DNA of 57,558 nt. Source: a virus. Lineage: Duplodnaviria > Caudoviricetes. The stretch is taken from positions 1-57,558 of IMG/VR virus record IMGVR_UViG_3300035670_009774; one strand, 5' to 3'. A program made the position numbers and the translations under genes. Under the pieces are notes generated by a model. It was not told the origin of the DNA, did not search any database, and saw only the letters and a program-made list of their open reading frames with translations. The stretch's first letter is position 1, and each line of letters opens with the position of its first letter. This document shows, piece by piece, positions 849 to 33,208 of the stretch.

Positions 849-1237
849 TGGATATATTATCAACACACCCCGTTAAAAAATTAGATTTAGGTTTTCATGG
901 CAATCTATTTGGCGGCAAATTGCTTAGCTGGGTAGATGCCGCTGTTGCCGCTTATGCTATGGAACGTTGTCATAGTAAAAATATGATTACAGTAGCATTA
1001 GATAAATGTGTATTTGAGAAACCAGCTAAAGAAGGACAATTAGTAAAAATTTATGCTGATATGTCTAGAATAGGAACCACTTCAGCTACATTTGATGTAG
1101 AAGCTAGAAATTATAATGTTTTTAGAGGTGATGAGCAAATTATTTTAAAAACAAGTATGACTTTTGTTCGAGTAGATGATGAAGGTATTCCAATCCCTAT
1201 TTCAGAACAAGTAAAACGAGAATTTCAACATTTTTAA
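848..1237 (+). CDS. Acyl-CoA thioesterase (hotdog fold, YciA-like)
   Basis: DLGFHGNLFGGKLLSWVD motif; C-terminal TFVRVDDEGIPIP. Confidence 0.85.
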   Translation: MDILSTHPVKKLDLGFHGNLFGGKLLSWVDAAVAAYAMERCHSKNMITVALDKCVFEKPAKEGQLVKIYADMSRIGTTSATFDVEARNYNVFRGDEQIILKTSMTFVRVDDEGIPIPISEQVKREFQHF

Positions 1238-1243
1238 ATATAA

Positions 1244-1753
1244 ATGAAACTTCAAACACTATTTACAGAACTTGAAATTAAAAATAAAGTAGGTGAAATT
1301 GCTTATAAAATTTCAAAACAAAAACACAATTCACCTCCTGTTTTTATTTGCGTTTTAAATGGCGCCTTTATGTTTTTTACGGATTTAGTGAAACATATAA
1401 AAGAATGCGAAATAGACTTTATAAGTGCGAAATCCTACACAGGTACAACACAGGGTGAGATAAAACTTTTAAAAGATATTACTAGTAATATTGAAGGAAA
1501 AGATGTTTATCTTGTAGATGATATATATGATTCTGGAAATACTATTAAGTTTTTAACTGAGCATCTTGCTTGGAAAAACCCAAAATCTATTACTCCTGTA
1601 GTTTTATTTAAACAATTTTATTCACACAATCCTAATTTAATTTATGGTTTTGAATTAGAAAATGAAAGTTGGTTAGTAGGTTATGGGTTAGATGATGAAA
1701 AAGGTCTTCAAAGAAATCTTAAACATATTGTTGGAATTCCTAGAGAGGATTAG
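1244..1753 (+). CDS. hpt: Hypoxanthine/guanine phosphoribosyltransferase-like
   Basis: CVLNGAFMFFTDL, PRPP loop VYLVDDIYDSGNT, WLVGYGLD...RNL. Confidence 0.85.
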   Translation: MKLQTLFTELEIKNKVGEIAYKISKQKHNSPPVFICVLNGAFMFFTDLVKHIKECEIDFISAKSYTGTTQGEIKLLKDITSNIEGKDVYLVDDIYDSGNTIKFLTEHLAWKNPKSITPVVLFKQFYSHNPNLIYGFELENESWLVGYGLDDEKGLQRNLKHIVGIPRED

Positions 1754-1761
1754 TATATTAT
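1730..1761 (+). promoter_or_regulatory. Bacteroidota-type promoter variant (GTTG-N20-TATATTAT)
   Basis: Same spacing as the repeated promoter; overlaps the hpt 3' end, upstream of 1777. Confidence 0.5.
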
Positions 1762-1776
1762 ATAAAAATAAAAATC

Positions 1777-2205
1777 ATGAATGTATCTCAAGCATTAAAG
1801 CAAAAAAACAAATTAATTGTTGAATTAAAAAAGCAATATCAAATTGCACAAAAATTTAATTCTCAAGAAGAAGGGAATGTTAGACGCTATTCAGTGCAAA
1901 ACGCATTGGATAAAGCTGTTGAGTTAACTATAGAGTTAACTGATTTAAAAACCAAAATTCACTTGGCAAATGCCCCAGTATACGATAAGATTTTTCGTAT
2001 GGCTGAATTGAAAAACCGTATTAAGGAACTGAGAAAAATTCCAACGGACGAAGGAAAAGTAGAAGCACGATTCAGTTCAGTAGCATCTGTAAAAGAAGTG
2101 GAAATTAATATTGCCCAACTTGATGAAATGGTCCAAACATTGGAAGCAAGAATTGATGAAATTCAAGCTGAGTTGGACGTTCATAACGCAACAACACAAA
2201 TTTAA
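1777..2205 (+). CDS. DIP1984-family-like coiled-coil protein
   Basis: N-terminal MNVSQALKQKNKL, central IHLAN and C-terminal IQAELDVHNATTQI fit the DIP1984-like pattern; heptad-rich. Confidence 0.65.
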   Translation: MNVSQALKQKNKLIVELKKQYQIAQKFNSQEEGNVRRYSVQNALDKAVELTIELTDLKTKIHLANAPVYDKIFRMAELKNRIKELRKIPTDEGKVEARFSSVASVKEVEINIAQLDEMVQTLEARIDEIQAELDVHNATTQI

Positions 2206-2207
2206 TT

Positions 2208-2401
2208 TGAGTAGGGAGTGATGATAAATTGATTTTCGATGTCGTACAATTCTACTATGAGCCAAATAGCGGATAAGTGATAATGATAAGGTACGCCAAC
2301 ATCAAAATTTAAATACTCAAAACATCAATCCTCGCGCACTTTCAATAAATTTAAACCTCTTTGAACTGGACTAGATTATTGATTTTGATTCGCTCCCCTC
2401 A
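2208..2401 (+). ncRNA. Putative structured ncRNA or 3' UTR element (~195 nt)
   Basis: Closing stem 2208-2221/2390-2401, internal stems 2232-2247/2291-2308 and 2317-2329/2378-2388; no credible ORF. Confidence 0.55.
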
Positions 2402-2407
2402 TTTTAA

Positions 2408-2439
2408 TTTGGATATTTTAAATATCCTTTATACATTTA
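2408..2439 (+). promoter_or_regulatory. Promoter TTTG-N20-TACATTTA upstream of folE
   Basis: Matches the repeated motif; spacer holds the inverted repeat GGATATTT/AAATATCC. Confidence 0.65.
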
Positions 2440-2460
2440 AATACAAAATTAATTAGTTAT

Positions 2461-3156
2461 ATGGAAAACAAAAGACGAAAAAACCACACTGATTTAGAGT
2501 GTGTTAAAACAGGTTTCGCTAATGGAGTTGCACCTGGATTCCCCCTTACCGAGAAAGAAAAGTGGTCAATGGTAGATGAAGCAGAAGAAGCTTATGGTAA
2601 ATTTCTTGATGCTCTAGGATGTGACTGGAGAAATGATCCAAATTCAATGGAAACACCTCGCCGTGTAGCTAAAGCTTATGTATTTGATTTATGGAAAGGT
2701 CGTTACGATGCTATGAGTGATATCACTTCATTCCCTTCAGATGGTTATGATGGTATTGTAATTGAAAGAAATATTCCTGTTACTTCAATGTGTTCACATC
2801 ACCACCAAACAATTGGAGGAGTAGTTCATGTTGGTTATGTAGTTGGTAAAGAAGGTCAAGTAATTGGTTTATCTAAGTTAAATAGAATTGTTGAATTGTT
2901 TGGTCGTAGAGGAGCAATTCAAGAACAACTAACATCTGCTATTCATAATGCTGTTGATAAAGTATGTGAAGGTAATAAAGGTGTTATTGTTACTGTAGTA
3001 GCAACACATAATTGTGTATCTTGTAGAGGTGTAAAACATCAAGGTGCTTCAATGGTTACAACCAAAGCATCAGGTGTATTTATGGAAAATGATAATCAAG
3101 CACGTAAAGAATTTTTTGATTCATTGAAAATTAATAACGGAGGACACCAGATATGA
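2461..3156 (+). CDS. folE: GTP cyclohydrolase I FolE
   Basis: ETPRRVAK, SMCSHHH, GLSKLNRIV, IQEQLT, HNCVSCRGV motifs. Confidence 0.95.
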   Translation: MENKRRKNHTDLECVKTGFANGVAPGFPLTEKEKWSMVDEAEEAYGKFLDALGCDWRNDPNSMETPRRVAKAYVFDLWKGRYDAMSDITSFPSDGYDGIVIERNIPVTSMCSHHHQTIGGVVHVGYVVGKEGQVIGLSKLNRIVELFGRRGAIQEQLTSAIHNAVDKVCEGNKGVIVTVVATHNCVSCRGVKHQGASMVTTKASGVFMENDNQARKEFFDSLKINNGGHQI

Positions 3157-3770
3157 GTCTACTAGAACAAAAACAAGCTGAATTAATTGAATTATTAGCA
3201 GGTCAAGTAGTAGATTTATCTATGATGTCTAAAATTGAACTTGGAAATGATGTAATTCAAGAATGGTCTCGATTGAATCTAGAGATTAATAATCTAAAAG
3301 ACAATTATGTACCATTTGTAAGTGAAGTTGAAGATTTTAATTCCCTAATGAATAAACCTAACAACTATGAACCGACAATTCCAGAAAATAGATCAGAGTG
3401 GGAATTCGTTTATAACTTCATTCTTGAAGAGCTTGAAGAATATAAACATGCTTGTGAAACCGGAAACATCGTTGAAGTTTTGGATGCGTTGTGTGACATT
3501 ACTTACGTTTCCCTTGGGAACGGTGCTATGCTTCATGGTCTTAAGAATAAAGTTTGGCCCGCTTATATGGAAGTACAGGCGTCGAATTTATCGAAAGCTT
3601 GTAGATCTCAAGAAGAGGCAGAAGAGACTGTACAAGTACGTTCCAAAGAACAAGGCGAAACATGTCATTGGGAAAAGGTTGGTGACAATTATATTGTATA
3701 CCGTAGCCGTGATAGGAAAGTTATGAAAAATATCAATTATTTTAGACCTGATCTTAAAAAATTCTTTTAA
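3153..3770 (+). CDS. MazG-like all-alpha NTP pyrophosphohydrolase with N-terminal extension
   Basis: ILEELEEY...EVLDALCDITYV..G...EVQASNLSK...DRKVMK...PDL. Confidence 0.8.
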   Translation: MSLLEQKQAELIELLAGQVVDLSMMSKIELGNDVIQEWSRLNLEINNLKDNYVPFVSEVEDFNSLMNKPNNYEPTIPENRSEWEFVYNFILEELEEYKHACETGNIVEVLDALCDITYVSLGNGAMLHGLKNKVWPAYMEVQASNLSKACRSQEEAEETVQVRSKEQGETCHWEKVGDNYIVYRSRDRKVMKNINYFRPDLKKFF

Positions 3771-6373
3771 TGTATCAATCGATATATTACGACAGAGAAA
3801 GTTATCAATATTATTTAAGAGACGACAAGCGAGGTTGGAAGATATTTAATTATCAACCAACCTGCTATGTTGCTGATGTTGATGGTGAGTATGAAACATT
3901 AGATGGTACTAGAGTATCACCTGTTAAGAAAATTGACTGGAAAGATCCTAAATATTTTGAAAAAGACGTAGACAAAAATACTAGAGTACTAGTCGATTTT
4001 TATTCTGAATCAGATGATACTCCTTCTTATCACAATTTAGTTTACTTAGATATTGAGTGTGAAATTGCAGGAGCACTTACACCTGAAAATATTAAAGATC
4101 CTAAAGGTAAAATTACATCAATTGCTTTATATGATAATAATAGTAAAAAATACTACTGTTTGATTTTAGATGAAAAACAATTGATGAAAGATGCTACATC
4201 AGAAGGTAAAGAAGTAATCCCATATAAATCAGAAAAAGAATTACTTAGTGGATTTCTTGACATCTGGATCAAACTTGATCCTACTATCATTTCAGGATGG
4301 AATAGTGAATTTTTTGATATCCCTTATCTATACTATCGTATTTCTAAAATATTAAGTACAGAATTAGCTCAATATTTATCTCCTATTCAAAAAGTTAAAT
4401 CTACATCTATGTTTGATAGTGGAGTAATGACTGATTTTGTAGTAATAGGAGGTGTTAATCATTTAGATTATATGAACTTATTTAAAAAGTTCATTACTAA
4501 ACAAGAACCAAGTTATGCTTTAGGTAATATTGGAGAAAAATATGTTAAGTTAGGTAAAATTGACTATAAAGGATCTCTTGATAAATTATTTAGAGAAGAT
4601 ATAAATACATTTATCGAATATAATATTCGAGACGTTGAAATTATTGTTGAATTAGAAAAATCACTCAAGTTTATTGACTTAACAGTTACAATTGCTCACT
4701 TATGTCATACAACTTATGAATCAATTTATTACTCAACAGTATTAAATGATGGAGCTATTTTAACTTATCTAAAACGTAAGGGAATTGTATCTCCTAATAA
4801 ACCTACTACTTATAATCCTGTACTTAAAGAAATTAAGGAAGAATATGCTGGAGGTTATTTAAAAGATCCTGTACCTGGTTTATATGAATGGGTTATTGAC
4901 CTTGACTTTACTTCGTTGTATCCATCGATTATTCGTTCACTTAATATGGGTATTGAAACATTAGTAGGACGCGTTGTAAACACAGGTAAATTCGATAATC
5001 AATGGTCATTAAGGGAACTCAAAAAAATGGATCCTGAAAAATTTGTTGAAATTGAAAAGGTTAAAAAAGATAGAAAACTTATTCGTTCTGAAATTAAAGT
5101 AAAACATCTAATAGAACTTATTGAAGAAGGTGACCTACTCATTTCAGCTCCAGGAGTAATATTCCGTAAAGATAAGTCAAGTGTTGTTTGTGAAATTTTA
5201 GCTGACTGGTTTGCTAAACGTCAAGAATATAAGGCGTTAATGAAAAAAGCATATAAGGTTGATAACGATCCTGTAATGGGAGAATTTTATAACAAACGTC
5301 AACACGCGTATAAAATTAAATTAAATGATGTTTACGGGGTATTTGCTATTAATGGTTGGAGATACACTGATGGACACAAATTCATCAGTAAAGCTATTAC
5401 ACTTACTGGTCAAAGATTAACTCAAGAGTCAATTAAGTTTGTAAATGAATGGATGAATACAGAATTAGGAACTAAAGATAAAGATTATATTGTCACATCA
5501 GATACCGATTCATTATTTATTCAAACTAAAGAATTAATTCTTCAACGTAATCCTGAATTAGCAAATGGTACTCAAGATGAAATTGTAAAAGCGGTCCTTG
5601 AAGTTGCTACTGAAATTCAAAAATTAGCAAATGATCATTTACATGTTTTAGTACAAGAGTTATTTAATGTTAAATATCCTGACGAACCACATTACTTTGA
5701 ATTAAAACAAGAAGTTGTACTTGATAGAGGTTATTTTGCTGGTAAACGTAGATATGCAATGCATATTGTAAATAAAGAAGGTGTACCAACAGATGAGCTA
5801 GATATGAAGGGTCTAGATTTGATGAAATCAAATTTCCCTCCACTATTTAGAAAGTTTGGAGAACATATTTTAAATGAAATTATGTTTGGTACTTCTAAAA
5901 CTAGTATTGATAAACAGGTGCTTGAATTTAGAGAATCACTTAGAACAGTAGGTTGGGAACAAATCCTAAAACCTACAGGATTAAAGAAAATGAGTGAATA
6001 TATTGCTTCAGGCCCCACAGCAGGTGAAATATTTAGTAAATTAGGTTTAAAATGTCCTATTAATACTAAAGCAGCTATCTATTATAATGATTTACTTCGT
6101 TTTAAAGGATTAGATAAAAAACATCCAACTTTTCAAATAGGAGATAAAATGTACATTGGATATCTGAAGGAGAATCCGTATCGTATCGACGTGATAGGAT
6201 TTAATGGACATAGCGATCCTCCTGAAATTATGGAGTTTATTGAAAAATATATTGATAGAGATGGACTATTTGATTCTGTTATGAAAAATAAATTAGAAGG
6301 CATCTACAGTGACTTAGGTTGGGGTATGCCTGTATTTAATAAAAAAGTTAACAAATTCTTTACATTCGAATAA
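3770..6373 (+). CDS. DNA polymerase family B (T4 gp43-like)
   Basis: Exo motifs DIECE, GWNSEFFDIPY, YNIRDV; pol motifs DFTSLYPSII, KIKLNDVYG, DTDS, KRRYA, KGLD. Confidence 0.95.
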   Translation: MYQSIYYDRESYQYYLRDDKRGWKIFNYQPTCYVADVDGEYETLDGTRVSPVKKIDWKDPKYFEKDVDKNTRVLVDFYSESDDTPSYHNLVYLDIECEIAGALTPENIKDPKGKITSIALYDNNSKKYYCLILDEKQLMKDATSEGKEVIPYKSEKELLSGFLDIWIKLDPTIISGWNSEFFDIPYLYYRISKILSTELAQYLSPIQKVKSTSMFDSGVMTDFVVIGGVNHLDYMNLFKKFITKQEPSYALGNIGEKYVKLGKIDYKGSLDKLFREDINTFIEYNIRDVEIIVELEKSLKFIDLTVTIAHLCHTTYESIYYSTVLNDGAILTYLKRKGIVSPNKPTTYNPVLKEIKEEYAGGYLKDPVPGLYEWVIDLDFTSLYPSIIRSLNMGIETLVGRVVNTGKFDNQWSLRELKKMDPEKFVEIEKVKKDRKLIRSEIKVKHLIELIEEGDLLISAPGVIFRKDKSSVVCEILADWFAKRQEYKALMKKAYKVDNDPVMGEFYNKRQHAYKIKLNDVYGVFAINGWRYTDGHKFISKAITLTGQRLTQESIKFVNEWMNTELGTKDKDYIVTSDTDSLFIQTKELILQRNPELANGTQDEIVKAVLEVATEIQKLANDHLHVLVQELFNVKYPDEPHYFELKQEVVLDRGYFAGKRRYAMHIVNKEGVPTDELDMKGLDLMKSNFPPLFRKFGEHILNEIMFGTSKTSIDKQVLEFRESLRTVGWEQILKPTGLKKMSEYIASGPTAGEIFSKLGLKCPINTKAAIYYNDLLRFKGLDKKHPTFQIGDKMYIGYLKENPYRIDVIGFNGHSDPPEIMEFIEKYIDRDGLFDSVMKNKLEGIYSDLGWGMPVFNKKVNKFFTFE

Positions 6374-7767: not shown

Positions 7768-7796
7768 TTAGTTTAAAAATAAAATAAACTTTACAG

Positions 7797-7823
7797 AAAA
7801 GCTTGTCTACCGACAGGCTTTTT
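7797..7823 (+). terminator. Intrinsic terminator, likely bidirectional, overlapping a CTTG-N20-TATCTTTA promoter
   Basis: AAAAGCTTGTC-TACC-GACAGGCTTTTT. Confidence 0.7.
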
Positions 7824-7850
7824 CTTATCTTTAATATATGTATATAAGAC

Positions 7851-7871
7851 AAAACCATGACTTTAGGGAGC
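7851..7871. repeat. Left arm of an inverted repeat flanking hsp20
   Basis: AAAACCA-tga-CTTTAGGGAGC, complementary to 8362-8381. Confidence 0.7.
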
Positions 7872-7926
7872 AAGTTTTGTTAATGTTTAACCCGCTGATC
7901 TTAGGACAGCACAAATTTAAAATGAT

Positions 7927-8355
7927 ATGAGTACATTATTTACCGAGAATTATTTCTCACCATTTGATTTATTATTCAAAGACTTTTTTAAGTCTGAATT
8001 AGATTTTCAACCGGCTAATCAAGCCAAATATTCCCACCCAGTAGACATCTTTGAAAACTCAGAAGGACTTCATTTTGAAGTTGCATGTACGGGTCTTGCT
8101 AAAGAAGATGTTGAACTTCATATTGAAGGAGATTTACTCGTTATTCGATATGATAAAAATTCTAAAGCACTTCAAGAAAAAGAAAGTCATAACTATATTC
8201 ATAGAGGTATAGCTAGACGTTCTTTTAGTCTAGGTTATAGAATTGCTTCTAAATTTAATCTTTCACAAGCAGAAGCAATAATGGAAAATGGATTACTTAC
8301 TATTGATATTCCATTTGCCGAAGAATCTAAACCAAAATTGTTGCAAATTAAATAA
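7927..8355 (+). CDS. Small heat shock protein Hsp20 (IbpA-like)
   Basis: PVDIFE, YIHRGIARRSF, AEAIMENGLLTIDIP alpha-crystallin motifs. Confidence 0.93.
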   Translation: MSTLFTENYFSPFDLLFKDFFKSELDFQPANQAKYSHPVDIFENSEGLHFEVACTGLAKEDVELHIEGDLLVIRYDKNSKALQEKESHNYIHRGIARRSFSLGYRIASKFNLSQAEAIMENGLLTIDIPFAEESKPKLLQIK

Positions 8356-8361
8356 TTAAAA

Positions 8362-8381
8362 GCTCCCTAAAGCTTGGTTTT
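8362..8381. repeat. Right arm of the inverted repeat flanking hsp20
   Basis: GCTCCCTAAAG-ct-TGGTTTT. Confidence 0.7.
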
Positions 8382-8404
8382 TTCAAGAATATTTCGTATA
8401 TTCA
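8373..8404 (+). promoter_or_regulatory. Promoter CTTGG...TTCG-TATATTCA
   Basis: Repeated motif, 20-nt spacer, upstream of the groES/groEL unit. Confidence 0.7.
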
Positions 8405-8424
8405 CGTTATAAAATATATAAAAA

Positions 8425-8720
8425 ATGAGTTATACTATTATTAAAGATCCGGCTATTGAGCCATTCCACATCTCTAAAGATCAATACTGTTACACAGTAG
8501 TGGAAACCATCACCCCAGATGAAAAGAATTTAGAAGCAGGAAGTGTAGGTAAAAATTATGAAAAGCCTTTAGGTCATTACACTAATTTATCCCATGCACT
8601 TAAAAAAATTGCTAAATCTAAATTAGACCTTAAATCTGAATATTCTACTATTATGGAGTATATTAATGAATGGCAACGCCAACAAGATGAAATGAATAAA
8701 CTATTAGAAAAAATTGGACT

Positions 8721-8724
<4 letters not shown>
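8425..8724 (+). CDS. Hypothetical protein
   Basis: ORF behind promoter, coupled to groES (ATGA overlap). Confidence 0.75.
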
Positions 8725-10626
<1,902 letters not shown>

Positions 10627-13462: not shown

Positions 13463-14122
13463 ATGTTTAAATGGACCCACACCCCAGAATGGTTTAAATC
13501 TGTAGTTGAAGAAGAAATTTTTCAAAATAAAATCTATGAAAAATTATTTACTGTAGATGAAAATGATATAGTTTTAGATATAGGAGCTAGTGTAGGTCCT
13601 TTTACATATTCTATTCTTCCTAAAAATCCTAAACATGTTATTTGTGTTGAACCTAGTCCTAGCCAATTTTATACATTAGTAGAAAATACTCAACACGGAA
13701 ATGTTACTTGTTTAAATAAATCTATTACATATACCAATGAAAAAATATTCACAGATACTGTTTATGGATCTGAAGGAGTATTAACTGAAAGTTATGGGAT
13801 ATCATTCATTCAATTAATTAATCAATATAATTTAGATAAGATTGATTTTCTTAAAACAGATTGTGAAAGTGGAGAATATGCTATTTTTACTTCTGAAAAT
13901 CTAGTTTGGATAAAACAAAATGTTAAAAAAATAGTAGGTGAATGGCATTTAGGTAATCCTGAATTGAAGCAAAAATTTAGAGAATTTAGAGATACATATT
14001 TAAGAATATTTCCTAATCATCAAATATTTTCAACAGATGGTCATAGTATTAATTGGGATTTATGGAATGAACATTTTATTGAGTATTATAATGAAGTTAT
14101 AATTTATATAGATAATAGATAA
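13463..14122 (+). CDS. FkbM-family methyltransferase
   Basis: VLDIGASVG, CVEP, IDFLKTDCESGEY, EWH. Confidence 0.85.
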   Translation: MFKWTHTPEWFKSVVEEEIFQNKIYEKLFTVDENDIVLDIGASVGPFTYSILPKNPKHVICVEPSPSQFYTLVENTQHGNVTCLNKSITYTNEKIFTDTVYGSEGVLTESYGISFIQLINQYNLDKIDFLKTDCESGEYAIFTSENLVWIKQNVKKIVGEWHLGNPELKQKFREFRDTYLRIFPNHQIFSTDGHSINWDLWNEHFIEYYNEVIIYIDNR

Positions 14123-14835
14123 TGGAAAAATTAATTTCTGTATTAATTCCTAGTAGAAATAGACCTCAAGGTTTAAGAGAATTATGTGATTCTTTATTTA
14201 ATAATGCTAATAATCCTAATCAAATAGAAGTTATAGTTTACTTTGATTTAGATGATTCTTATATTCCTGAATATGTTGAATATTTTAATGAATTAACACT
14301 TAAATATACTAATCCTGTAAAAACTATAATAGGTCCTAAATTAGTTTTAAGTGATTATCCTAATAAACTTCTTCAAATAGCATCTTCTGATATTTTTATG
14401 AATTTAGGAGATGATATGAGGTGTAGAGCTAAAGGATGGGATGAGATTATAATAGAGGCTATAAATGAATATCCTGATAAGATTAATTTTGTTTATGTTG
14501 ACGATGGATACTGGGGACCTAATCTAGCTAGTCACCATATTATTCATAGAAATTATGTTGAATGTTTAGGTTACTTTTACCCTCCATTTTTTGATTTTGG
14601 CTACTCAGATGCATGGATGTTTCAAGTAGCTCAAAAAGTAGGAAGAATTAAATTTTTACCAATATTATTTGAACATATGCATTATAGTATAGGTAAAGGA
14701 AATTTTGATCAAACCTACCAAGATAAATTGGAAAAAAATCAAAATAATATTTATGGAGATTTATTTGTTTCAACAGAATATTTACGAGATCAAGATGTAA
14801 AAAAATTACAAAGTTATATAAAAAGTTTTGTCTAA
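14122..14835 (+). CDS. Glycosyltransferase family 2
   Basis: ISVLIPSRNRP, DLDD, NLGDD, YSD, EHMH. Confidence 0.8.
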   Translation: MEKLISVLIPSRNRPQGLRELCDSLFNNANNPNQIEVIVYFDLDDSYIPEYVEYFNELTLKYTNPVKTIIGPKLVLSDYPNKLLQIASSDIFMNLGDDMRCRAKGWDEIIIEAINEYPDKINFVYVDDGYWGPNLASHHIIHRNYVECLGYFYPPFFDFGYSDAWMFQVAQKVGRIKFLPILFEHMHYSIGKGNFDQTYQDKLEKNQNNIYGDLFVSTEYLRDQDVKKLQSYIKSFV

Positions 14836-15772
14836 AAAGAAAAAAATACCTCAAATTCTTAAACAAATTAAGAATCAACCATTAAGAGAAATGAATTATG
14901 CTTTTGAAAAAGCAATTTCATATAGCCAATTTTCTGTTTACCAAAATTGTCCCCGTAAATGGTCTTTACAGTATAAAGATGGTCATTATACTAGCGAATC
15001 ATCCATTCATATGACTTTTGGAACAGCATTACATGAAACTTTACAACATTATTTAACAACTATATATGAAGTTAGTGGTGCGGCTGCTGATAGAATTAAT
15101 TTAAAAGAATATTTTGAAGAACGTTTTCGAGAAACTTATTTAAAAGACTACAAATCCAATAATAATATCCATTTTAGCAACTCAGTTGAAATGAATGAAT
15201 TTTTTGAAGATGGAATTGCTATTTTAGAATTTGTAAAGAAAAAACGAGGTAGTTATTTTAGTAAAAAAGGATGGCATTTAGTAGGATGTGAAGTTCCTCT
15301 TATGGTTACTCCAAATCCCCAATATCCTAATATTTTATATAAAGGTTATTTAGATGTTGTTTTATATAATGAAACACTAAATAAATTTAAAATTTTAGAT
15401 ATTAAAACATCTACTAGAGGTTGGGGTGATCGAGAAAAAAAAGATGAATTAAAACAATTTCAACTTATTCTTTATAAAAAATATTATGGACAACAATACA
15501 ATATCCCTACAGATAATATTGATGTAGAATTTTTTATTGTAAAACGTAAAGTATGGGAGAATAGTGATTTTCCTATTTCACGAATCCAAGAATTTATACC
15601 AGCAAGTGGTAAAGTCAAATTAAATAGAGCAGTTACATCCGTAAACAATTTTATTGAAGAAGCATTTAACACAGATGGTTCTCACAAATCAGGAAGTTAT
15701 CAACCAAATCCATCTGCTCATAATTGTAGATTTTGTCCTTTTAAGGATAATAAAGAACTTTGTAATAAATAA
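14828..15772 (+). CDS. PD-(D/E)XK nuclease (Cas4/RecB-like)
   Basis: SYSQ...CP, FGTALHE, GYLDVV, LDIKT, QLILY, CRFCPF...C. Confidence 0.85.
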   Translation: MSKKKKIPQILKQIKNQPLREMNYAFEKAISYSQFSVYQNCPRKWSLQYKDGHYTSESSIHMTFGTALHETLQHYLTTIYEVSGAAADRINLKEYFEERFRETYLKDYKSNNNIHFSNSVEMNEFFEDGIAILEFVKKKRGSYFSKKGWHLVGCEVPLMVTPNPQYPNILYKGYLDVVLYNETLNKFKILDIKTSTRGWGDREKKDELKQFQLILYKKYYGQQYNIPTDNIDVEFFIVKRKVWENSDFPISRIQEFIPASGKVKLNRAVTSVNNFIEEAFNTDGSHKSGSYQPNPSAHNCRFCPFKDNKELCNK

Positions 15773-15782
15773 ATATTAAAAT

Positions 15783-16787
15783 ATGAATTCACACGAAGTA
15801 ATGCTCATAACAGCCCATACCCCAGATGAATATAGAATGGGTTTACTTAGAAATTTAGTAATAAAACTTAAAGAAAATAATAAAAAAATAGTAATTTCAT
15901 CCCATAGTAAAATAGATGATGATATTATTGATATGGTTGATTATTTTGTTTATGATTCTAATAATCAACTTTTAATATATAATGAACCTGAAGGATGGAT
16001 TAAAACAACAGCAACTATTCAATCTCAAACTATAGTTACTAAAGATTCCCTTTATTTAGGAAGTCCTGTTTTAGCTCATTGGAGAACTTTGAGTAATGGG
16101 TTAATGCTTTGTAAAAGTGTTGGTTTTAAATATGTTCATTATTTAGAATTTGATACTGAAGTTAAAAGTATTGTAGAAATAGATACTAATACAAAACTTC
16201 TTCAACAAGGAAATGCTAATGTAGTTTATACATTTCCTGAGGATATAGAAAATCCAAAAAAATATTTTAATTTAGAAGGGCATTATAATGTTTGGAATTT
16301 AGATTATTATTCATTTGAAGAACTTTCTTTTGATGAAAAAAAATCTCGTTGTATTCTCCAAGATAATCAAGGATGTTGTGAATGGGCTTATTATGATTTT
16401 TTTATAAAAAATAAACCTCATATAATAAAAAATCAATATATTCTTAATGATAAAGGTATAATTTTAGATTTACACCATAATACATGGAATTTATTATCTT
16501 CTAGAGGATTAATAGAACCTATACTATATGTAGAAAATAATATTATTTATGCTTATATTAATAATCCCTTTGATAAAGAATATCTTTTAACTTTAATAAT
16601 TAACAACGAAGAAGAAATCCACCAAACCTCAGAACCAGAACATTGGTTACGTTTTCCTATAGGTGATCTCCAGAATATAAATAATCTTAGAATTTATTTA
16701 AACGGAAACTTTTTAAGAGAAATAATTTTTGAAGATGATACTCAAAAAGAAACTTTTAAAAATAATAATTATATTTTAGTATTTTAA
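15783..16787 (+). CDS. Hypothetical protein, possibly GT-A-fold
   Basis: ITAH, ISSH, YLEFD motif; glycan-island context. Confidence 0.65.
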   Translation: MNSHEVMLITAHTPDEYRMGLLRNLVIKLKENNKKIVISSHSKIDDDIIDMVDYFVYDSNNQLLIYNEPEGWIKTTATIQSQTIVTKDSLYLGSPVLAHWRTLSNGLMLCKSVGFKYVHYLEFDTEVKSIVEIDTNTKLLQQGNANVVYTFPEDIENPKKYFNLEGHYNVWNLDYYSFEELSFDEKKSRCILQDNQGCCEWAYYDFFIKNKPHIIKNQYILNDKGIILDLHHNTWNLLSSRGLIEPILYVENNIIYAYINNPFDKEYLLTLIINNEEEIHQTSEPEHWLRFPIGDLQNINNLRIYLNGNFLREIIFEDDTQKETFKNNNYILVF

Positions 16788-16832
16788 AAGAATCCTAATA
16801 TATTTATATACAACAATTAAAAAATAAAATTT

Positions 16833-17024
16833 ATGAGTAAAAAAGAAATGACTCTCACTTCTGTAAAAGTGCAGAGTGAGTTATTTGAAGAATTCAAAAT
16901 TTCGTGTGTAAAATATAAATTTTCACTACAAAAGCTTGCTGATCGTACAATTCATTTGTATCTTACCGATGAAGAATTTAGAAAAAAAGTACATAATCAC
17001 ACAAATTTAGAAATCAACGGTTAA
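16833..17024 (+). CDS. Small ribbon-helix-helix-like DNA-binding protein
   Basis: LTSVKV strand followed by two predicted helices. Confidence 0.6.
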   Translation: MSKKEMTLTSVKVQSELFEEFKISCVKYKFSLQKLADRTIHLYLTDEEFRKKVHNHTNLEING

Positions 17025-17046
17025 AAATTAAATTAAATAAAGTTAC

Positions 17047-18489
17047 ATGAATAATAGTTTTGAATACCTGCCCCCAGAGCAGAGGAAAAAAATCTTACTA
17101 ATTTGCGATGACATTCGAGTCCACTCAGGAGTAGCAACTGTTGGTAGAGAAGTAGTAATTAATACTGCTCATCATTTTAATTGGGTAAACATTGCTGGGT
17201 CTCTTAACCACCCTGAAATAGGAAAACGTCTTGATCTTTCAAAATCAACAGATGAATCTGCAAATTTAACAGATTCCTCAGTTATCTTATACCCAGCAAA
17301 TGATTATGGTGGACCTGATATGCTCCGTCAAATTATTGAATTGGAAAAACCAGATGCTATCATGTTGATTACTGATCCTCGTTATTTCTTTTGGTTATTT
17401 TCTATGGAAAATGAAATTAGAAAAAATATTCCTATTACTTATTTAAATATTTGGGATGATTATCCGGCTCCACTTTATAATAAACCTTATTATGAAGCTT
17501 GTGATCTATTAATGGGTATTTCAAAACAAACAGTAAATATTAATAATATTGTTTTAGGTGAAAAAGCAAAAAACAAAATTGTTCGTTATGTTCCCCATGG
17601 CCTGAATGAAAAACTTATGCATCCTATTACTTCTGAGGATCCAAGTTGGGAAAATTTACAAACATTTAAAAAACAATTTTTCGAAGGAAAAGAATATGAT
17701 TTTGTTTTATTCTTCAACTCTAGAAATATTCGTCGTAAACAAATTCCTGATACCATGTTGGCTTATAAGTTTTTTATAGATCAACTTCCTGAAGAAAAAG
17801 CAAAGAAATGTTGTTTTGTACTTCATACTGAATTAGTAAGTGATCATGGAACTGATTTAGCGGCTGTACAAGAATTATTTTTAAATGAAGAAAAATATAA
17901 TGTTATTATTACAAATAGAATTTTTAACAACTATGAAATGAGTTTGTTATATAACATTACCGATGCTCAAATTCTTTTAACATCTAATGAAGGTTGGGGT
18001 TTAAGTTTAACAGAAGCTATCCTAACAGGTAATCCTATTATTGCTAATGTAACCGGAGGAATGCAAGACCAAATGAGATTTGAAGATGAAAATGGAAATT
18101 GGTTTACTCCTACTTTAGAAATTCCCTCTAATCATAACGGCACCTATAAAAAACATGGTGAATGGGCTTTCCCAGTATACCCAACAAATCGTTCAATTCA
18201 AGGTTCACCTCTAACACCTTATATTTGGGATGACAGATGTCGTCCTGAAGATGCTGCTGAGCAAATTATGGCTATTTATTCTTTATCTAAAGAAGAACGT
18301 AAAGCTAGAGGTTTAAAAGGTAGAGAATGGGCTTTAGGAGAAGCTGGATTTACTGGAAAAATTCAAGGTGAAAGAATTATAGAAGCATTTAAGGAATTAT
18401 TTAAAACTTGGAAACCAAGAGAAAAATATGAACTTATTAATGTAAATGAAGTTAAAGATAGAGTAAACACACATAAATTGTTATATTAA
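17047..18489 (+). CDS. Glycosyltransferase family 4
   Basis: SGVATV, VPHG, RNIRRKQ, SNEGWGLSLTEA, NVTGG. Confidence 0.9.
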   Translation: MNNSFEYLPPEQRKKILLICDDIRVHSGVATVGREVVINTAHHFNWVNIAGSLNHPEIGKRLDLSKSTDESANLTDSSVILYPANDYGGPDMLRQIIELEKPDAIMLITDPRYFFWLFSMENEIRKNIPITYLNIWDDYPAPLYNKPYYEACDLLMGISKQTVNINNIVLGEKAKNKIVRYVPHGLNEKLMHPITSEDPSWENLQTFKKQFFEGKEYDFVLFFNSRNIRRKQIPDTMLAYKFFIDQLPEEKAKKCCFVLHTELVSDHGTDLAAVQELFLNEEKYNVIITNRIFNNYEMSLLYNITDAQILLTSNEGWGLSLTEAILTGNPIIANVTGGMQDQMRFEDENGNWFTPTLEIPSNHNGTYKKHGEWAFPVYPTNRSIQGSPLTPYIWDDRCRPEDAAEQIMAIYSLSKEERKARGLKGREWALGEAGFTGKIQGERIIEAFKELFKTWKPREKYELINVNEVKDRVNTHKLLY

Positions 18490-19793
18490 TGAAACCATTA
18501 TTTATTATAAGTTCCCCTTTTGATACCTACTCAGGCTATGGAGCTCGTTCTCGAGACGTTATTAAATCTATTGTTCAATCGGGTAAATACAACGTACGTT
18601 TATTATCTCAAAGATGGGGAAACACACCCTTTGGATTTTGTAAAGATAATCCTGAATGGAAATTTTTATATGATTTAGTACTTCCTAATAATCAAATCCC
18701 AAAACAACCAGAAATTTGGGCTCAAATAACTATTCCTAGTGAATTTCATCCTGTTGGAAAATATAACATTGGATTTACAGCAGGAATTGAATCTACCATT
18801 TGTCCAGGTGATTGGGTAGAAGGATGTAATAGAATGGATTTAAATATTGTATCATCAGAACATTCTAAAAAAGTATTCCAAGAATCTCAATTTGAAAAGA
18901 GAAATAAACAAACCAATGCTTTAGAAGGTATAATAAAACTAGAAAAACCTATTGAAGTATTATTTGAAGGAGCAAATACTGAGGTTTATAAAGTAATAGA
19001 ACGTAATGAAATTAAAAATATTAATTTAAATTCCATTAAAGAAGATTTTGCATATCTGTTTGTAGGGCATTGGATGCAAGGTGAATTAGGTGAAGATCGA
19101 AAAAATGTAGGATTATTGGTTAAAGCATTTTACGAAACCTTTAAAAACAAAACTAAAAAACCAGCATTAATTCTTAAAACTTCTCAAGTAGGTTCTTCTT
19201 ATTCTGATAGAGAAGAAATTCTTAAAAAACTTAAAATTATTAGAAAATCAGTTAATTCTAAAAACTTACCAAATGTTTATTTATTACATGGTGAATTTAC
19301 TGATACTGAAATGAATGAAATTTATAATCATTCAAAAGTAAAAGCTATGGTTAGTTTAACTAAAGGTGAAGGTTTTGGCCGTCCTTTACTTGAATTCACC
19401 TTATCTAAAAAACCATTAATTACTACAGGATGGTCTGGGCAAATGGATTTTTTAAATCCTGAATTTACTAATTTAATTGGGGGTCAATTATCTAATGTTC
19501 ATCCAAGTGCTGCCAACCAATGGTTACTAGCAGATTCACAATGGTTTACTCCAGATAATGGACAGATAGGTTTTTATTTAAAAGATGTTTTTGAAAATTA
19601 TAAAAATTATATTGATAAAGCAAAACGTCAAGCTTATAAAAGCAAAAATGAATTTAGTTGGGAAAGAATGCAAGAAAAACTTAATACTCTTTTAACTCAA
19701 TCTCTTCCTAATTTCCCTGAAGAAATTGAATTAAAACTTCCTACTATTAAAAAGATTAATTTACCTAAAAAAGTTGAAATAAAAAATGGATAA
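18489..19793 (+). CDS. Glycosyltransferase family 4
   Basis: SGYG, RKN, KGEGFGRPLLEF, TGWSG. Confidence 0.9.
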   Translation: MKPLFIISSPFDTYSGYGARSRDVIKSIVQSGKYNVRLLSQRWGNTPFGFCKDNPEWKFLYDLVLPNNQIPKQPEIWAQITIPSEFHPVGKYNIGFTAGIESTICPGDWVEGCNRMDLNIVSSEHSKKVFQESQFEKRNKQTNALEGIIKLEKPIEVLFEGANTEVYKVIERNEIKNINLNSIKEDFAYLFVGHWMQGELGEDRKNVGLLVKAFYETFKNKTKKPALILKTSQVGSSYSDREEILKKLKIIRKSVNSKNLPNVYLLHGEFTDTEMNEIYNHSKVKAMVSLTKGEGFGRPLLEFTLSKKPLITTGWSGQMDFLNPEFTNLIGGQLSNVHPSAANQWLLADSQWFTPDNGQIGFYLKDVFENYKNYIDKAKRQAYKSKNEFSWERMQEKLNTLLTQSLPNFPEEIELKLPTIKKINLPKKVEIKNG

Positions 19794-20241
19794 TCTAATT
19801 AATTGCTCCCGTTGTGGTTCAGATGCGTGTTACGTAGAAGAAGTGAACCAAGATATTAAAACATATTTTTGTTACGGATGTGGGTTTCAAACTAATTCTT
19901 TAATGAAAGAAGGTGAAACTTTTTATGAAGAACAGATAAATATTTTACCTGAACTTTATAAAGATTTAGTTAATAAAGATGAAAACGGAATTATGTGGAT
20001 GCCTTCTACTGTTAATTTACCTCAACAAGGAATGATATTTGCTAATGGTCCTTCTAAAACGGATTGGGGTTGGGCCGCAGTAAAAGCAGTACCTGTTTTA
20101 GAGGAAGAAAAAGAAAAATACCCTATTCCTGGCAAAAATGGAGAATTTTACGAGTGGAGAATGGATATGACTACACTTCAAATGTTTCCTGAGCGTGATT
20201 TTATAGAAGCACTTTCGTATATTGGAGTATTACCTGAATAG
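19786..20241 (+). CDS. Zinc-ribbon protein
   Basis: CSRCGSDAC...CYGCG. Confidence 0.7.
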   Translation: MDNLINCSRCGSDACYVEEVNQDIKTYFCYGCGFQTNSLMKEGETFYEEQINILPELYKDLVNKDENGIMWMPSTVNLPQQGMIFANGPSKTDWGWAAVKAVPVLEEEKEKYPIPGKNGEFYEWRMDMTTLQMFPERDFIEALSYIGVLPE

Positions 20242-20247
20242 TATTTT

Positions 20248-20877
20248 ATGAAAATCAGTTATGCAATCACAGTGTGTAATGAGTTTGTTGAAATTCAACG
20301 ACTCATTACATTTTTGTTAAAAAATAAAAGATCACAAGATGAAATAGTAGTTTTAGTTGATATGACTAAAAATGAACCAACATCTGAGCTATTAGGATAT
20401 TTACATAGATTAAGTAGTAGTAATTATATCCTCTTATCCGAACAAAAATTTAATGGCCATTTTGCTGATTGGAAAAATTATTTAACTAGTTTATGTAGTG
20501 GTAATTATATTTTTCAAATAGATGCTGATGAAATCCCCCATGAAAATTTAATAAATTCCCTCCCAGAATTATTAGAAGAAAATTCAATAATTGATATGCT
20601 TCGAGTTCCACGAGTAAATACAGTTGAAGGTTTAACAGAAGAACATATAAAAAAATGGGGTTGGAATGTAAATGAAAAAGGTTGGGTAAACTGGGCAGAT
20701 TGGCAAATGCGAATCTATAAAAATACTCCTGAAATTAAGTGGATAAATAAAGTTCATGAAGTATTAGATGGATTTAAAACACATGGAATGCTTCCGGTAG
20801 ATGAAGAATGGGCTTTATATCATCCAAAAACAATAGAAAAACAAGAAAAACAAAACAATTATTACGATACGTTATGA
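20248..20877 (+). CDS. Glycosyltransferase family 2
   Basis: ISYAITVCNE, QIDADE, DWQMR, VHE. Confidence 0.88.
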   Translation: MKISYAITVCNEFVEIQRLITFLLKNKRSQDEIVVLVDMTKNEPTSELLGYLHRLSSSNYILLSEQKFNGHFADWKNYLTSLCSGNYIFQIDADEIPHENLINSLPELLEENSIIDMLRVPRVNTVEGLTEEHIKKWGWNVNEKGWVNWADWQMRIYKNTPEIKWINKVHEVLDGFKTHGMLPVDEEWALYHPKTIEKQEKQNNYYDTL

Positions 20878-21278
20878 GTGAAAGAAAATATTTACCTACA
20901 CTAAGTGAATTGATTGATCGTTTATCAATCACCCAATTAAAAGAAGTATTCATTACTGATCACAAATCAGAATATGCTGCTGAAATTGCTGATATTGTTC
21001 ATGATATCCAATTACATTTAAATGAATGTAAAGAACCAATTACTGCTGAAACTATTAGAGCAATTGTAGTTTTATCCCAAATGAATCTTCATATTTGGCA
21101 CAATGAATCAAATGTTAGAAGTGGAAAATCAGGACCAAATGCATTAGCATTAACTCATGGATTAAATGGTATTCGTAATACTGCTAAAAACCAGATCCAA
21201 GAAATAATGGGGGGTCGTAAAGATTATAAAATTGATTGTTTAGCAGCAGATTTTAAAGATTGGGAAATATCATGGTAA
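20874..21278 (+). CDS. Hypothetical helical protein of glycan clusters
   Basis: TLSELIDRLSITQLKE...N..IWH.E...LNGIRN; start moved to the coupled ATG at 20874. Confidence 0.7.
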   Translation: MSERKYLPTLSELIDRLSITQLKEVFITDHKSEYAAEIADIVHDIQLHLNECKEPITAETIRAIVVLSQMNLHIWHNESNVRSGKSGPNALALTHGLNGIRNTAKNQIQEIMGGRKDYKIDCLAADFKDWEISW

Positions 21279-22177
21279 AAAAAGTATTAATAATTGGTGG
21301 TAACGGATATATCGGTTCTAGATTATATAGTCACCTTGTAAATTTAGGATATAACGTTACTAATATAGATTTAGGATGGTTTGGTATTACCCATACAGAT
21401 GCAATTCAAAAAGACTATAGAGATTTAACAAAAGACGAATTAAGTGAATACACACATATTATTCTTTTAGCAGGTCATTCAAGTGTTTCTATGTGTGGAG
21501 GTGAATTAACATCTTGTTTTAACAATAATGTTTATAATTTTGTAAATTTATTAGATAAGATAGATGATAATCAAACTTTAATTTATTCAAGCACACTTGC
21601 TGTATATGGAAATAATCCTAAATTAGTAACAGAGGAAGATCCAATTAAAAAAGCATTAAACGTTTATGATTATACTAAAATAGCTAGAGAAAATATTGCT
21701 GATCTTTATCCTAATAAAAAATTAGTAGGATTAAGATTTGGTTCTGTATCTGGATTTTCATCTAATTTTAGAAATGAAAATCTATTAAATTCATTAACCA
21801 TGTCTTCAGTAAATAAACTTCCACTTACAATTTCTAATGGAGATGCTTATAGATCTGTTTTAGGTTTAAATGATTTATGTCGTGCTATAGATAAAATCAT
21901 AGAAGTAGATATTATTAAAAACAAAATCTACAATTTAACCTCAGTAAGTGATAAAATTATTAATTTTGGTTACGAAGTTAAACGTTTAACAGATTCTGAA
22001 TTAATAGTTAATGATTCTTTTAAAACAGATTACAGTTTTAATTGCTCGGCTGAGTTGTTTGAAAAAGATTATAATTTTAAGTTTGGAGATACTATAGAAT
22101 CTATATATAATGACATCATTATAAATTACGATAATATATTATTTAATACTAAACGAGAAAAAGTAACATATGAATAG
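21272..22177 (+). CDS. NAD-dependent epimerase/dehydratase (extended SDR)
   Basis: GGNGYIG, YSST, YDYTK, LRFGSV. Confidence 0.88.
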   Translation: MVKKVLIIGGNGYIGSRLYSHLVNLGYNVTNIDLGWFGITHTDAIQKDYRDLTKDELSEYTHIILLAGHSSVSMCGGELTSCFNNNVYNFVNLLDKIDDNQTLIYSSTLAVYGNNPKLVTEEDPIKKALNVYDYTKIARENIADLYPNKKLVGLRFGSVSGFSSNFRNENLLNSLTMSSVNKLPLTISNGDAYRSVLGLNDLCRAIDKIIEVDIIKNKIYNLTSVSDKIINFGYEVKRLTDSELIVNDSFKTDYSFNCSAELFEKDYNFKFGDTIESIYNDIIINYDNILFNTKREKVTYE

Positions 22178-23387: not shown

Positions 23388-24294
23388 GATTACATACCAT
23401 ATAATGCCTTGGGAGATTGATTTTGCATTAATATCTTTTTTACAATTAAAAAAATCCAAATATCATATTGATCCTACAGTTGATGTTAAAATCACCGCTG
23501 TATTAAACATGTCTGACTATTTAATTGATTGGGATAATACAAAATTGCCAAAAGAATTATTTAAACAAAAATTCAAAGATTTAGGAGTTTTATTAAAAGA
23601 TTATGAATATGATCCTGTTATAATTGAAGGCCCAGAACAATATGGAATCCTAGATATGCAGAAAAATAGCTATGAACCTGATGTTGATTATTATATTAAT
23701 ATAACTCAGGATATGTATTTTAGTGAAACTTTATTATCTAATTTAATTGAAGCTACTAAATTAATAAAAAATAAATATTTTGTTATTACCCCTGAAATAT
23801 ATAAAATGTGGGATAATACTTGGGATGAAATTGTAAATGAAAAATACCTAAGTGTTCCTTATAATGATTGGGATAAAGCAGATATTTTTGATATTAGACA
23901 TGATTTAAAAACCTCAGATGATGAATTGTATTTGTATCCTACAAAACGAAGTAAATGGGCTTGGTGGTTAGATTTATATAGTAAAGCATTTTATGAAGAA
24001 TTTGCTCCTGTTCAAGATGATATGAAAGGATACGGTGCTTGGGATTTTTATACATTACTGTTAACAGAACAAGCTAAATCTAGAGGAGCAGATTTTCAAC
24101 AATATGTTTTAAAAGGTCAAACAATATTTGAATATCCTATAGGTTCTTTAAAAGAAAGAGGGTTTACTGGGTATTATAAGGATTATTTTAGTATTAAGGT
24201 TAATGCTTTAGATCAAAGAAAAGTATTTGAAAGTAAAATGGCTCAATACTTACAACATGGAATTAAAGAATTAGAATTAAAAAATATAATATAA
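23377..24294 (+). CDS. Hypothetical protein, probable glycosyltransferase
   Basis: GT-A-like pattern (ITQD, GYGAWD) inside the glycan island. Confidence 0.55.
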   Translation: MKIKITYHIMPWEIDFALISFLQLKKSKYHIDPTVDVKITAVLNMSDYLIDWDNTKLPKELFKQKFKDLGVLLKDYEYDPVIIEGPEQYGILDMQKNSYEPDVDYYINITQDMYFSETLLSNLIEATKLIKNKYFVITPEIYKMWDNTWDEIVNEKYLSVPYNDWDKADIFDIRHDLKTSDDELYLYPTKRSKWAWWLDLYSKAFYEEFAPVQDDMKGYGAWDFYTLLLTEQAKSRGADFQQYVLKGQTIFEYPIGSLKERGFTGYYKDYFSIKVNALDQRKVFESKMAQYLQHGIKELELKNII

Positions 24295-25666: not shown

Positions 25667-25702
25667 CTTGGAAACCCAAATAATTTTAATTAAATTAGTA
25701 AT

Positions 25703-26329: not shown

Positions 26330-26333
26330 TAAT

Positions 26334-33203: not shown

Positions 33204-33208
33204 ATAAG

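Follow-up and report, generated by a model that had tools for sequence, protein, structure and literature searches.

Organization of the locus

The window analysed here is the whole of the IMG/VR virus record IMGVR_UViG_3300035670_009774 (57,558 bases; completeness estimate 35%), in which 97 of the 100 accepted open reading frames (ORFs) lie on the + strand. Near its beginning, an ORF encoding a 142-residue protein is separated by 255 nt from the ATG of folE, the GTP cyclohydrolase I gene, and this ORF together with a conserved RNA element located in the gap is the subject of the present analysis (Table 1). An earlier note on this DNA, made from the letters alone, had presented the gap as a non-coding interruption of an otherwise gene-dense genome. 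The gap is indeed non-coding, but it is not unique, being one of seven gaps longer than 150 nt in the window. The six others, all between accepted ORFs, are found at 7768-7926, 33204-33402, 35277-35556, 36169-36495, 39408-39607 and 53930-54304, and Rfam at gathering threshold returns no match in any of them. The nearest named phages are Cellulophaga and Flavobacterium phages, with folE (73%) as the sole shared match.

Table 1. Features of the gene-RNA unit and of the neighbouring genes in the window
Feature	Position	Strand	Remarks
Promoter-like site before the ORF	1731-1761	+	TTGG at 1731, TATATTAT at 1754-1761; weakened copy of TTTGG-N19-TATATTTG
Indel cassette	1765-2444	+	ORF, RNA element and following promoter-like site
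142-residue protein, DIP1984 (3KDQ) fold, predicted homodimer	1777-2205	+	Stop TAA at 2203-2205; codon identity, AlphaFold, structure matches
Conserved non-coding RNA element	2206-2405	+	Identity, covariance model (match spans 2196-2409)
P1, 5' strand	2208-2221	+	TGAG (2208-2211) pairs with CTCA (2398-2401); TA bulge; GGGAGTGA (2214-2221) pairs with TCGCTCCC (2390-2397), one G-U; overall partner 2390-2401; columns covary (helices 1-2)
P1, inner 5' strand	2222-2235	+	TGAT faces TGAT (possible tandem G.A), then AAATTGAT; register uncertain
Hairpin P2	2255-2269	+	CTAT, loop GAGCCAA, ATAG; covaries
GATAA repeat, three copies (GAU boxes)	2272-2290	+	Family-wide; conserved columns in alignments A3 and A5
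G-poor stretch with TCAA units	2299-2330	+	Units about 8 nt apart (2302, 2317, 2325)
Possible hairpin P4	2341-2365	+	TTCAA/TTGAA around AAACCTC box (2353-2359)
P1, 3' strand	2378-2401	+	ATTGATTT, TGAT, TCGCTCCC, CTCA
T-run right after P1	2402-2405	+	Possible RNA 3' end
Promoter-like site for folE	2408-2439	+	TTTG, 20 nt, TACATTTA; read from the sequence; inside the cassette
Radical-SAM QueE-like gene	66-848
4HBT thioesterase	848-1237
Phosphoribosyltransferase	1244-1753
GTP cyclohydrolase I (folE)	2461-3156		ATG at 2461
MazG-like pyrophosphatase	3153-3770
Family-B-type DNA polymerase ORF	3770-6373

A conserved non-coding element downstream of the gene

A protein search of IMG/VR identified 13 loci related to the 142-residue protein, and a six-row profile subsequently reported 252 stretches encoding a relative, of which the best 80 were analysed. 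In all of the first 13 loci, the gene is followed by at least 250 nt devoid of any + strand ORF of 60 residues or more. Between the window and eight relatives (91-93% protein identity), the ORF displays identities of 0.94, 0.97 and 0.82 at codon positions 1, 2 and 3, respectively, identifying it as a real coding gene. The adjoining block (2206-2405) aligns at 91% in the same set, with long invariant runs interrupted by 1-nt indels. Its identity (0.92, as compared with 0.82 at the third codon positions) and these indels indicate that it is constrained and yet non-coding, and a sliding comparison singles out 1745-2414 as an island of conservation. A coding function for 2206-2405 was ruled out, as the block contains tiny frames only and the relatives differ from it by 1-nt indels.

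Inspection by eye of 68 distinct loci points to a common plan after the gene: a G-rich 5' strand pairs with a C-rich 3' strand located ~190 nt further on, and these strands are accompanied by a small hairpin, GAU boxes, three to five UCAA units and an AAAACUC box, distant members exhibiting in addition a canonical GC hairpin followed by a T-run at the end of the element. A covariance model (R1) was built from 27 aligned elements, the window among them, with a hand-set structure of 29 pairs, and was searched against both strands of the window and 81 loci (473 kb); 27 of these 82 sources provided the training sequences, and the E-values of the model are rough. R1 reports a single match in 72 of the 82 sources, invariably on the + strand and 0-25 nt after the stop codon, down to a protein identity of ~45%, and the sole other match in the 473 kb has an E-value of 0.84. 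Among the 39 untrained sources (L055-L093), 14 return a match at E ≤ 0.01 and 32 at E ≤ 1, always at that location. Contigs of metagenome-assembled genomes (MAGs) behave similarly, 8 of 10 loci returning a match directly after the gene (E ≤ 0.008). In the 57.6-kb record itself, R1 reports the block and nothing else (E 1.6e-34, the window being a training sequence). Conversely, a pattern describing the RNA element only matched 23 IMG/VR contigs, every one of which carries the gene and was already known through the protein. In a single locus, L093, an insertion of ~190 nt, apparently a small ORF, separates the gene from the RNA element (2939-3316).

Rfam 15 at gathering threshold assigns tRNAs alone in the window and in 20 diverse loci, and thus no family matches the block. 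The best sub-threshold match inside it is snoZ122 (18.9 bits against 38, E 8.5), which is due to the motif GUGAUGA. Among the papers listed by literature searches on structured phage RNAs and on such gene-RNA pairs, none deals with the motif, as judged from title or abstract. The non-coding block that the earlier note had placed 2 nt after the stop is thus kept among relatives, and the check suggested there, on the sequence downstream of homologues of the gene, returns a comparable element in the 72 sources and the eight MAG loci. Taken together, these comparisons support the assignment of the block as a conserved, structured non-coding element that is tied to the gene over a wide range of divergence.

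Secondary structure of the element

The sequence features listed in the earlier note, namely the GATAA positions (2223, 2272, 2279 and 2285) and the pairing ends, are all present, and the closing stem is followed by TTTT at 2402-2405. This stem, P1, is used in the minimum-free-energy fold, and its covariation was assessed on an alignment of 61 distinct rows fitted to model R1 (A5). In A5, which follows the structure set by the authors and whose related rows inflate the shuffle test, 81.7% of the cells of the closing helix and hairpin are paired, as compared with 66.5% in shuffles (0 of 500 as high) and with 33-50% when the partners are slid by 1-3 columns. Similarly, 244 cells are changed on both sides, versus 96 in shuffles, and the covariation score amounts to 0.329, versus 0.145 in shuffles and 0.06-0.11 in slid columns. 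Since A5 leans to the set structure and its rows are related, a test that requires no alignment was added, in which the duplex energy of the first 45 nt after the stop with nt 110-300 was compared with controls taken 320 nt further on. The elements return a median z of -3.14, with 49 of 78 distinct members below -2, whereas the controls return a median of -0.13, with 6 of 75 below -2. The proposal that the ends of the block pair is therefore upheld by the fold, by covariation and by the alignment-free test.

The covariation signal is carried by the four segments of the closing helix and by P2, a 4-bp hairpin (2255-2258 with 2266-2269) whose covariation is also present on the MAFFT alignment. 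In P2, 82.8% of the cells are paired and its four pairs are changed on both sides in 7, 4, 16 and 6 rows. Compensatory changes thus exceed the controls for both P1 and P2, and the element is a structured RNA under selection. The inner part of P1 (helices 3-4) is 73-91% paired, depending on the column, with many changes on both sides. Its register in the window is ambiguous because TTGAT recurs: by eye, 2226-2233 faces 2378-2385, and in the model alignment 2226 pairs with 2385 and 2231-2235 with 2380-2384.

The multi-stem architecture drawn in the earlier note did not survive beyond this closing helix, and the only other covarying element, P2, was absent from that drawing. The first proposed inner arm (2232-2247 with 2291-2308) is paired in 48.9% of cells, as compared with 50.6% in shuffles. 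The second (2317-2329 with 2378-2388) is marginal, with 57.2% versus 55.2% (28 of 500 shuffles as high), and its 3' strand is taken instead by the extended closing helix. The alternative 8-bp pairing suggested between 2206-2213 and 2314-2321 is weak (64.6% versus 59.5%). A scan of all column pairs of A5 returned no convincing further helix in the core. Pairings of the GAU boxes with the AUC/UCAA units, and of the P2 loop with the region following P4, were dropped, as inspection by eye indicated that they are not kept across subfamilies. P4 itself is conserved and hardly covaries: 83.8% of its cells are paired, and changes on both sides are found in two of its five pairs (6 rows and 1 row). Given that neither the tested inner arms nor the core scan disclose another helix, the RNA is best described as a long irregular helix around a core of ~130 nt. 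This core is largely unpaired, G-poor, conserved in primary sequence, and rich in GAUAA and UCAA repeats. Tandem Repeats Finder reports the GATAA repeat as the sole tandem repeat of the block (period 6-7, 2.9 copies). In the plain MAFFT alignment (A3), the TCAA columns show little or no variation, and they are retained in distant members.

The GUGAUGA motif raised the possibility of a box C/D or kink-turn (k-turn) RNA. The rules of such RNAs include a C box RUGAUGA, a D box CUGA by the terminal stem, and a 3-nt bulge. In the block, GUGAUGA is present, but it is opposed by UUGA within a symmetric UGAU/UGAU loop that has no 3-nt bulge, and the motif is missing from many family members; the block is accordingly not assigned to this class.

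Strand, promoter-like sites and possible transcript end

Among the paired columns, G-U or U-G cells outnumber A-C or C-A cells (107 versus 43), and the terminators found after the element lie on the + strand, both of which identify the + strand RNA as the folding one. Upstream of the ORF, a sigma-70 consensus scan reports TTGGAA-17-TATATT. The Bacteroidetes promoter consensus, TTTG-N17-23-TAnnTTTG, can be recognized ahead of the gene, no further than 120 nt away and with at most one mismatch to the second box, in 24 of 68 distinct loci. The window has a weakened copy at the place reported by the sigma-70 scan, and the view that the unit possesses its own promoter is therefore retained. Likewise, a promoter directly after the unit had been suggested, and a promoter-like site for folE can be read there by eye. 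Its TTTGG is invariant in nine close relatives, and it appears to resemble the Bacteroidetes consensus. The spacer of this site contains an inverted repeat, GGATAT-TTTAA-ATATCC (2411-2427), at which relatives differ and are nevertheless also palindromic. At the other end of the unit, the synonymous sites of the first 10 codons of the ORF (1777-1806) are nearly fixed among close relatives (0.94 versus ~0.65 elsewhere), which suggests that the beginning of the mRNA is constrained.

The possibility of an inner promoter for the RNA was discarded, synonymous conservation in the last 20 codons being no higher than in the rest of the ORF. With no sign of such a promoter, the RNA would most simply be made as the 3' tail of the mRNA of the protein. 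After P1, 22 of 59 distinct elements carry a run of at least four T residues, and 12 of the 59 display a GC hairpin followed by a T-run no more than 70 nt away, two further cases being recognized by eye. In the window, an intrinsic-terminator scan of the + strand from 2206 to 2460 reports no short GC-rich hairpin (3-8-nt loop) followed by a T-run. The interpretation of the element as an intrinsic terminator only was rejected, since the stem that precedes the T-run encloses ~170 nt.

The element might more broadly be a purely cis-acting mRNA tail that guards the 3' end, terminates transcription (through the helix and T-run, or through a G-poor stretch loading Rho) and insulates the unit from the next promoter. 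Such a tail would fit the T-run or terminator found after P1 in 33 of 59 distinct elements, the G-poor, C-containing core, the new promoter-like site directly after the element, and the way in which the cassette splits an otherwise compact operon. However, terminators and stabilizers need neither 130 nt of conserved unpaired sequence nor repeats that remain fixed down to about 35-45% protein identity, and members endowed with a separate strong terminator still retain the element; we regard this explanation as distinctly unlikely.

The 142-residue protein

AlphaFold returns a confident model of the protein (pLDDT 96.8) comprising three helices (residues 3-27, 40-85 and 112-139) and a β-hairpin (residues 93-106). 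A structure search reports 3KDQ as the best hit (Z 12.9, rmsd 2.5 over 140 of 142 residues; runner-up Z 9.0), and Foldseek agrees (3kdq, probability 1.00, TM 0.82/0.76, E 0.003-0.004). The predicted whole-chain fold is thus that of DIP1984 (3KDQ), and the label of DIP1984-like given to the protein at first reading is confirmed at the level of the fold model. At the sequence level, the window protein scores 17.4 bits against the NCBIfam family NF038048 (E 0.0038, aligned over residues 3-148 of 149), below the cut-off of 70 bits, and its homologues score 21.9-26.1 bits. Pfam reports no match at E < 0.01, and PF20935 (DUF6847) is absent from the hits even at E ≤ 10. This family is carried by the nearest Atlas clusters (19% and 100% of their members), and the Atlas neighbours are viral, one of them being named 'putative Septicolysin'. 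A sequence search of the PDB yields chance-level coiled-coil matches alone, and PADLOC yields weak coiled-coil matches alone (LmuB and similar) and no toxin family. The protein family is large, with 1659 representative clusters (50% identity) matching at E ≤ 0.001. Its members are labelled 'hypothetical protein' in their sources, bar one 'DUF1015 family'. In the family of one MAG host, NF038048 is found in 1 of 81 genomes, and this instance is the locus itself. Among the papers listed by a literature search, none mentions DUF6847, PF20935 or 3KDQ, the work returned for DIP1984 is unrelated, and the name 'septicolysin' is used only in annotations, chiefly those of Acinetobacter plasmids.

The protein is predicted to form a homodimer, in line with the earlier suggestion of an oligomer. 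The prediction score is 0.58, as compared with 0.00 for the best of three controls; the runs share at least 98% of the contacts, and the partner pLDDT is at least 89. This mark was attained by 20 of 30 proteins whose solved structures are pairs and by 1 of 23 whose solved structures are single chains, although the pass may reflect memory of the solved relative 3KDQ. The invariant residues N28-S29 sit in the predicted dimer interface.

A cassette in varied genomic surroundings

Contigs from four runs recorded, or guessed, as RNA libraries were compared with the window; such contigs document presence, and neither transcription nor RNA ends. One of them (X8) joins position 1764 to 2445, skipping 680 nt, and another (X1) joins 1759 to 2451, skipping 691 nt with 7 other letters in between. 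These joins indicate that relatives exist in which precisely this piece is missing, from the ORF through the element to the promoter-like site that follows, and the earlier description of a self-contained insert is therefore well founded. Both junctions occur just after promoter-like sites, with AAAAT on either side, a layout that recalls the promoter-flanked shuffling cassettes of T4-type phages. A third contig (X2; 922 nt, 52 differences) covers 1777-2597, beginning at the ATG and extending past the element into folE.

That an indel cassette lies between similar promoter-like sequences, with AAAAT on both sides, and recurs in many different genomic contexts might suggest that the element works at the level of DNA, as a recombination or replication site (for instance a folded single-strand site) that enables the cassette to move. 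Yet the excess of G-U over A-C pairs fits the + strand alone, the junctions are located in the promoter-like flanks, outside the element, the element accompanies a single gene family, which general cassette sites do not, and no recombinase gene is found among the flanking ORFs scanned (128 ORFs from 39 loci). We therefore consider a DNA-level site very improbable.

The flank survey covered 128 of 170 flanking ORFs, from 39 of 43 chosen loci. It reports RNA ligase in two loci, an AAA_33 kinase-like gene in one, HAD_SAK_2 in one, metallophosphoesterase (Metallophos) in eight, DNA ligase in two and Band_7 in four, as well as sugar enzymes. In L030 (890-2440) and L041 (981-2135), the gene immediately before the unit encodes an RNA ligase with a PHA02142 OB domain; in L030 it is preceded by the AAA_33 kinase-like gene, the two resembling a tRNA-repair pair. 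Genes for tRNAs are located within 1.5 kb of the unit in 22 of 80 loci, the nearest being tRNA-Ser in most and tRNA-Leu in four; both of these tRNAs possess a long variable arm. This pattern (L030-L054, L062-L064 and L013) occurs in at least three distinct arrangements, many of the loci being related. In L009 (whose contig is shared with L037), a 160-kb phage contig holds 24 tRNA genes in 4.8 kb (1072-5820), and the unit is inserted between a tRNA-Ser that ends 62 nt before the ORF and a tRNA-Glu that starts 5 nt after P1. The flanking context is thus varied, with what appears to be a weak flavour of RNA repair and tRNA.

These surroundings bear on another explanation, in which a small RNA derived from the 3' untranslated region acts alone, either engaging a host RNA-binding protein or RNase (as a sponge or decoy) or regulating by base pairing, the protein serving the same pathway unbound. 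The flanking tRNAs in L009 would allow such an RNA to be released by RNase P, RNA-repair and tRNA genes reside near some loci, the unpaired stretches (UCAA repeats, AAAACUC box) are strongly conserved in primary sequence, and the protein is not basic. Against it, the RNA is never found apart from the gene, be it among the 23 pattern contigs or in the record with its one match, and an independent RNA would have no need to start, as all 72 matches do, 0-25 nt after the stop. An RNA working alone appears rather unlikely on this balance.

Elsewhere in the window, consecutive genes encode Hsp20, GroES (Cpn10) and GroEL (Cpn60) at 7927-10623, and a long run of sugar-modification genes at 13463-32349 encodes glycosyltransferases, epimerases/dehydratases, an aminotransferase, C-methyltransferases and a PfkB kinase. 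A carbamoyltransferase gene is located at 40637-42292, and ARAGORN reports a tRNA-Phe with the unusual anticodon AAA at 57179-57252 (Rfam tRNA, 43.3 bits).

Discussion

We propose that the region is, very probably, a small + strand transcription unit, a movable cassette of large Bacteroidota phages that specifies a protein followed by a 190-200-nt RNA with paired ends. The unit consists, in this order, of a promoter, a short A-rich leader, the gene of a 142-residue protein of DIP1984 fold and, within 0-25 nt, the RNA, and is closed by a T-run or a terminator. In the RNA, the two ends form a long irregular helix enclosing a mostly unpaired, G-poor core, which harbours one small hairpin and the AAAACUC box as well as the conserved GAUAA and UCAA repeats. 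That this element represents a new structured RNA family, made with the DIP1984-fold gene and tied to it as one movable unit, is close to shown.

As to its mode of action, the RNA would be the 3' tail of the mRNA of the protein and the protein a symmetric dimer. The nascent dimer might bind the repeated single-stranded motifs that the long helix presents on its own transcript. This binding, which is suggested by the linkage of gene and element and by the predicted homodimer, is put forward tentatively. The resulting protein-RNA particle would be the working product, and binding may also feed back on the mRNA. A role of the particle in RNA or tRNA metabolism during infection is hinted at by the tRNA, RNA-ligase, kinase and phosphoesterase genes nearby. 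Going one step further, a DIP1984-fold dimer on a 200-nt scaffold RNA derived from its own mRNA could serve as a decoy, a sponge or a tRNA/RNA-repair helper against host RNA-targeting defences, and would then represent a new class of phage ribonucleoprotein; this is a doubtful, if conceivable, extension.

Several observations weigh against the proposal of a ribonucleoprotein, or against the structured element on which it is built. The protein is not basic (pI 6.8, 22 K+R versus 22 D+E), and Pfam scans report no known RNA-binding domain in it. The + strand of the block folds at -37.6 kcal/mol, which is ordinary for its composition (z -1.07; 28 of 200 shuffles as good; minus strand z -0.34), and by the energy test alone, which the earlier note had listed, the finding would fail. 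RNAalifold returns 0 pairs on A3, although sub-alignments did fold; the absence of pairs partly reflects A/U-rich helices aligned without regard to structure. Model R1 has no match at E ≤ 1 in 10 of the 82 sources, where similar elements are visible by eye. Many of the tRNA-bearing loci are mutually related, and the hint of RNA repair is weak because the flanking genes differ widely between loci. Finally, the RNA-library data consist of contigs alone, one of which continues into folE and marks no transcript end.

Whichever function the unit serves, it brings together a 200-nt RNA, whose scaffold covaries and whose single-stranded repeats are fixed, and a protein fold solved by crystallography in 2009 that lacks an assigned function. 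The element is a candidate new Rfam family and a lead to the function of DUF6847. The unit is compact (~680 nt) and self-contained, and some close relatives carry it whereas others do not, so that adding or removing it would be a direct test of its effect. If the ribonucleoprotein reading is true, it would provide the first function for the DUF6847/DIP1984 fold together with a new RNA family.

Comparison with known systems

The protein shares with the DIP1984/DUF6847 family (PF20935), represented by the unknown-function protein 3KDQ of Corynebacterium diphtheriae, a common length class and the succession of two long helices, a β-hairpin and a third helix. Members of this family are often annotated 'septicolysin'. 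The window protein differs by its faint sequence likeness and by the viral nature of its branch.

At the level of the whole unit, a protein gene accompanied by an adjacent non-coding RNA with short repeats, forming a mobile two-part unit, resembles type III toxin-antitoxin systems such as ToxIN. In those systems, the RNA is located upstream and is made of long tandem repeats (~36 nt). In the window, the RNA lies downstream, its repeat is only a 6-7-nt unit in 2.9 copies, and PADLOC reports no toxin match, so the layout of these systems is not reproduced. The long stem of paired ends around a large loop, the occurrence in phages and the proximity to genes for RNA ligase and tRNAs are also reminiscent of the Ro (Rsr) protein with its Y RNA or YrlA partners. 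However, no TROVE-domain protein is found among the 75 window ORFs scanned, Rfam reports no YrlA or Y RNA match, and ARAGORN reports no tRNA-like module. The T4 species 1 and 2 RNAs, GOLLD and ROOL are likewise structured phage RNAs of unknown role, often located in or near tRNA clusters. They differ from the present element by their sizes and in that none is known to be tied to one protein gene, and Rfam returns no match to them here.

A further likeness in layout, a non-coding RNA placed directly at the end of a protein gene, is with the omega RNAs of TnpB and IscB, which measure ~150-250 nt, belong to the same transcript as the protein gene and form a particle with the protein. The present protein differs in being a small helical bundle and not a nuclease, neither transposon ends nor a guide segment were seen, and no Rfam family matches. 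The omega RNAs were themselves first known as orphan motifs, and they are the best-known example of orphan RNA motifs, each tied to one protein family, that have repeatedly turned out to be new machines.

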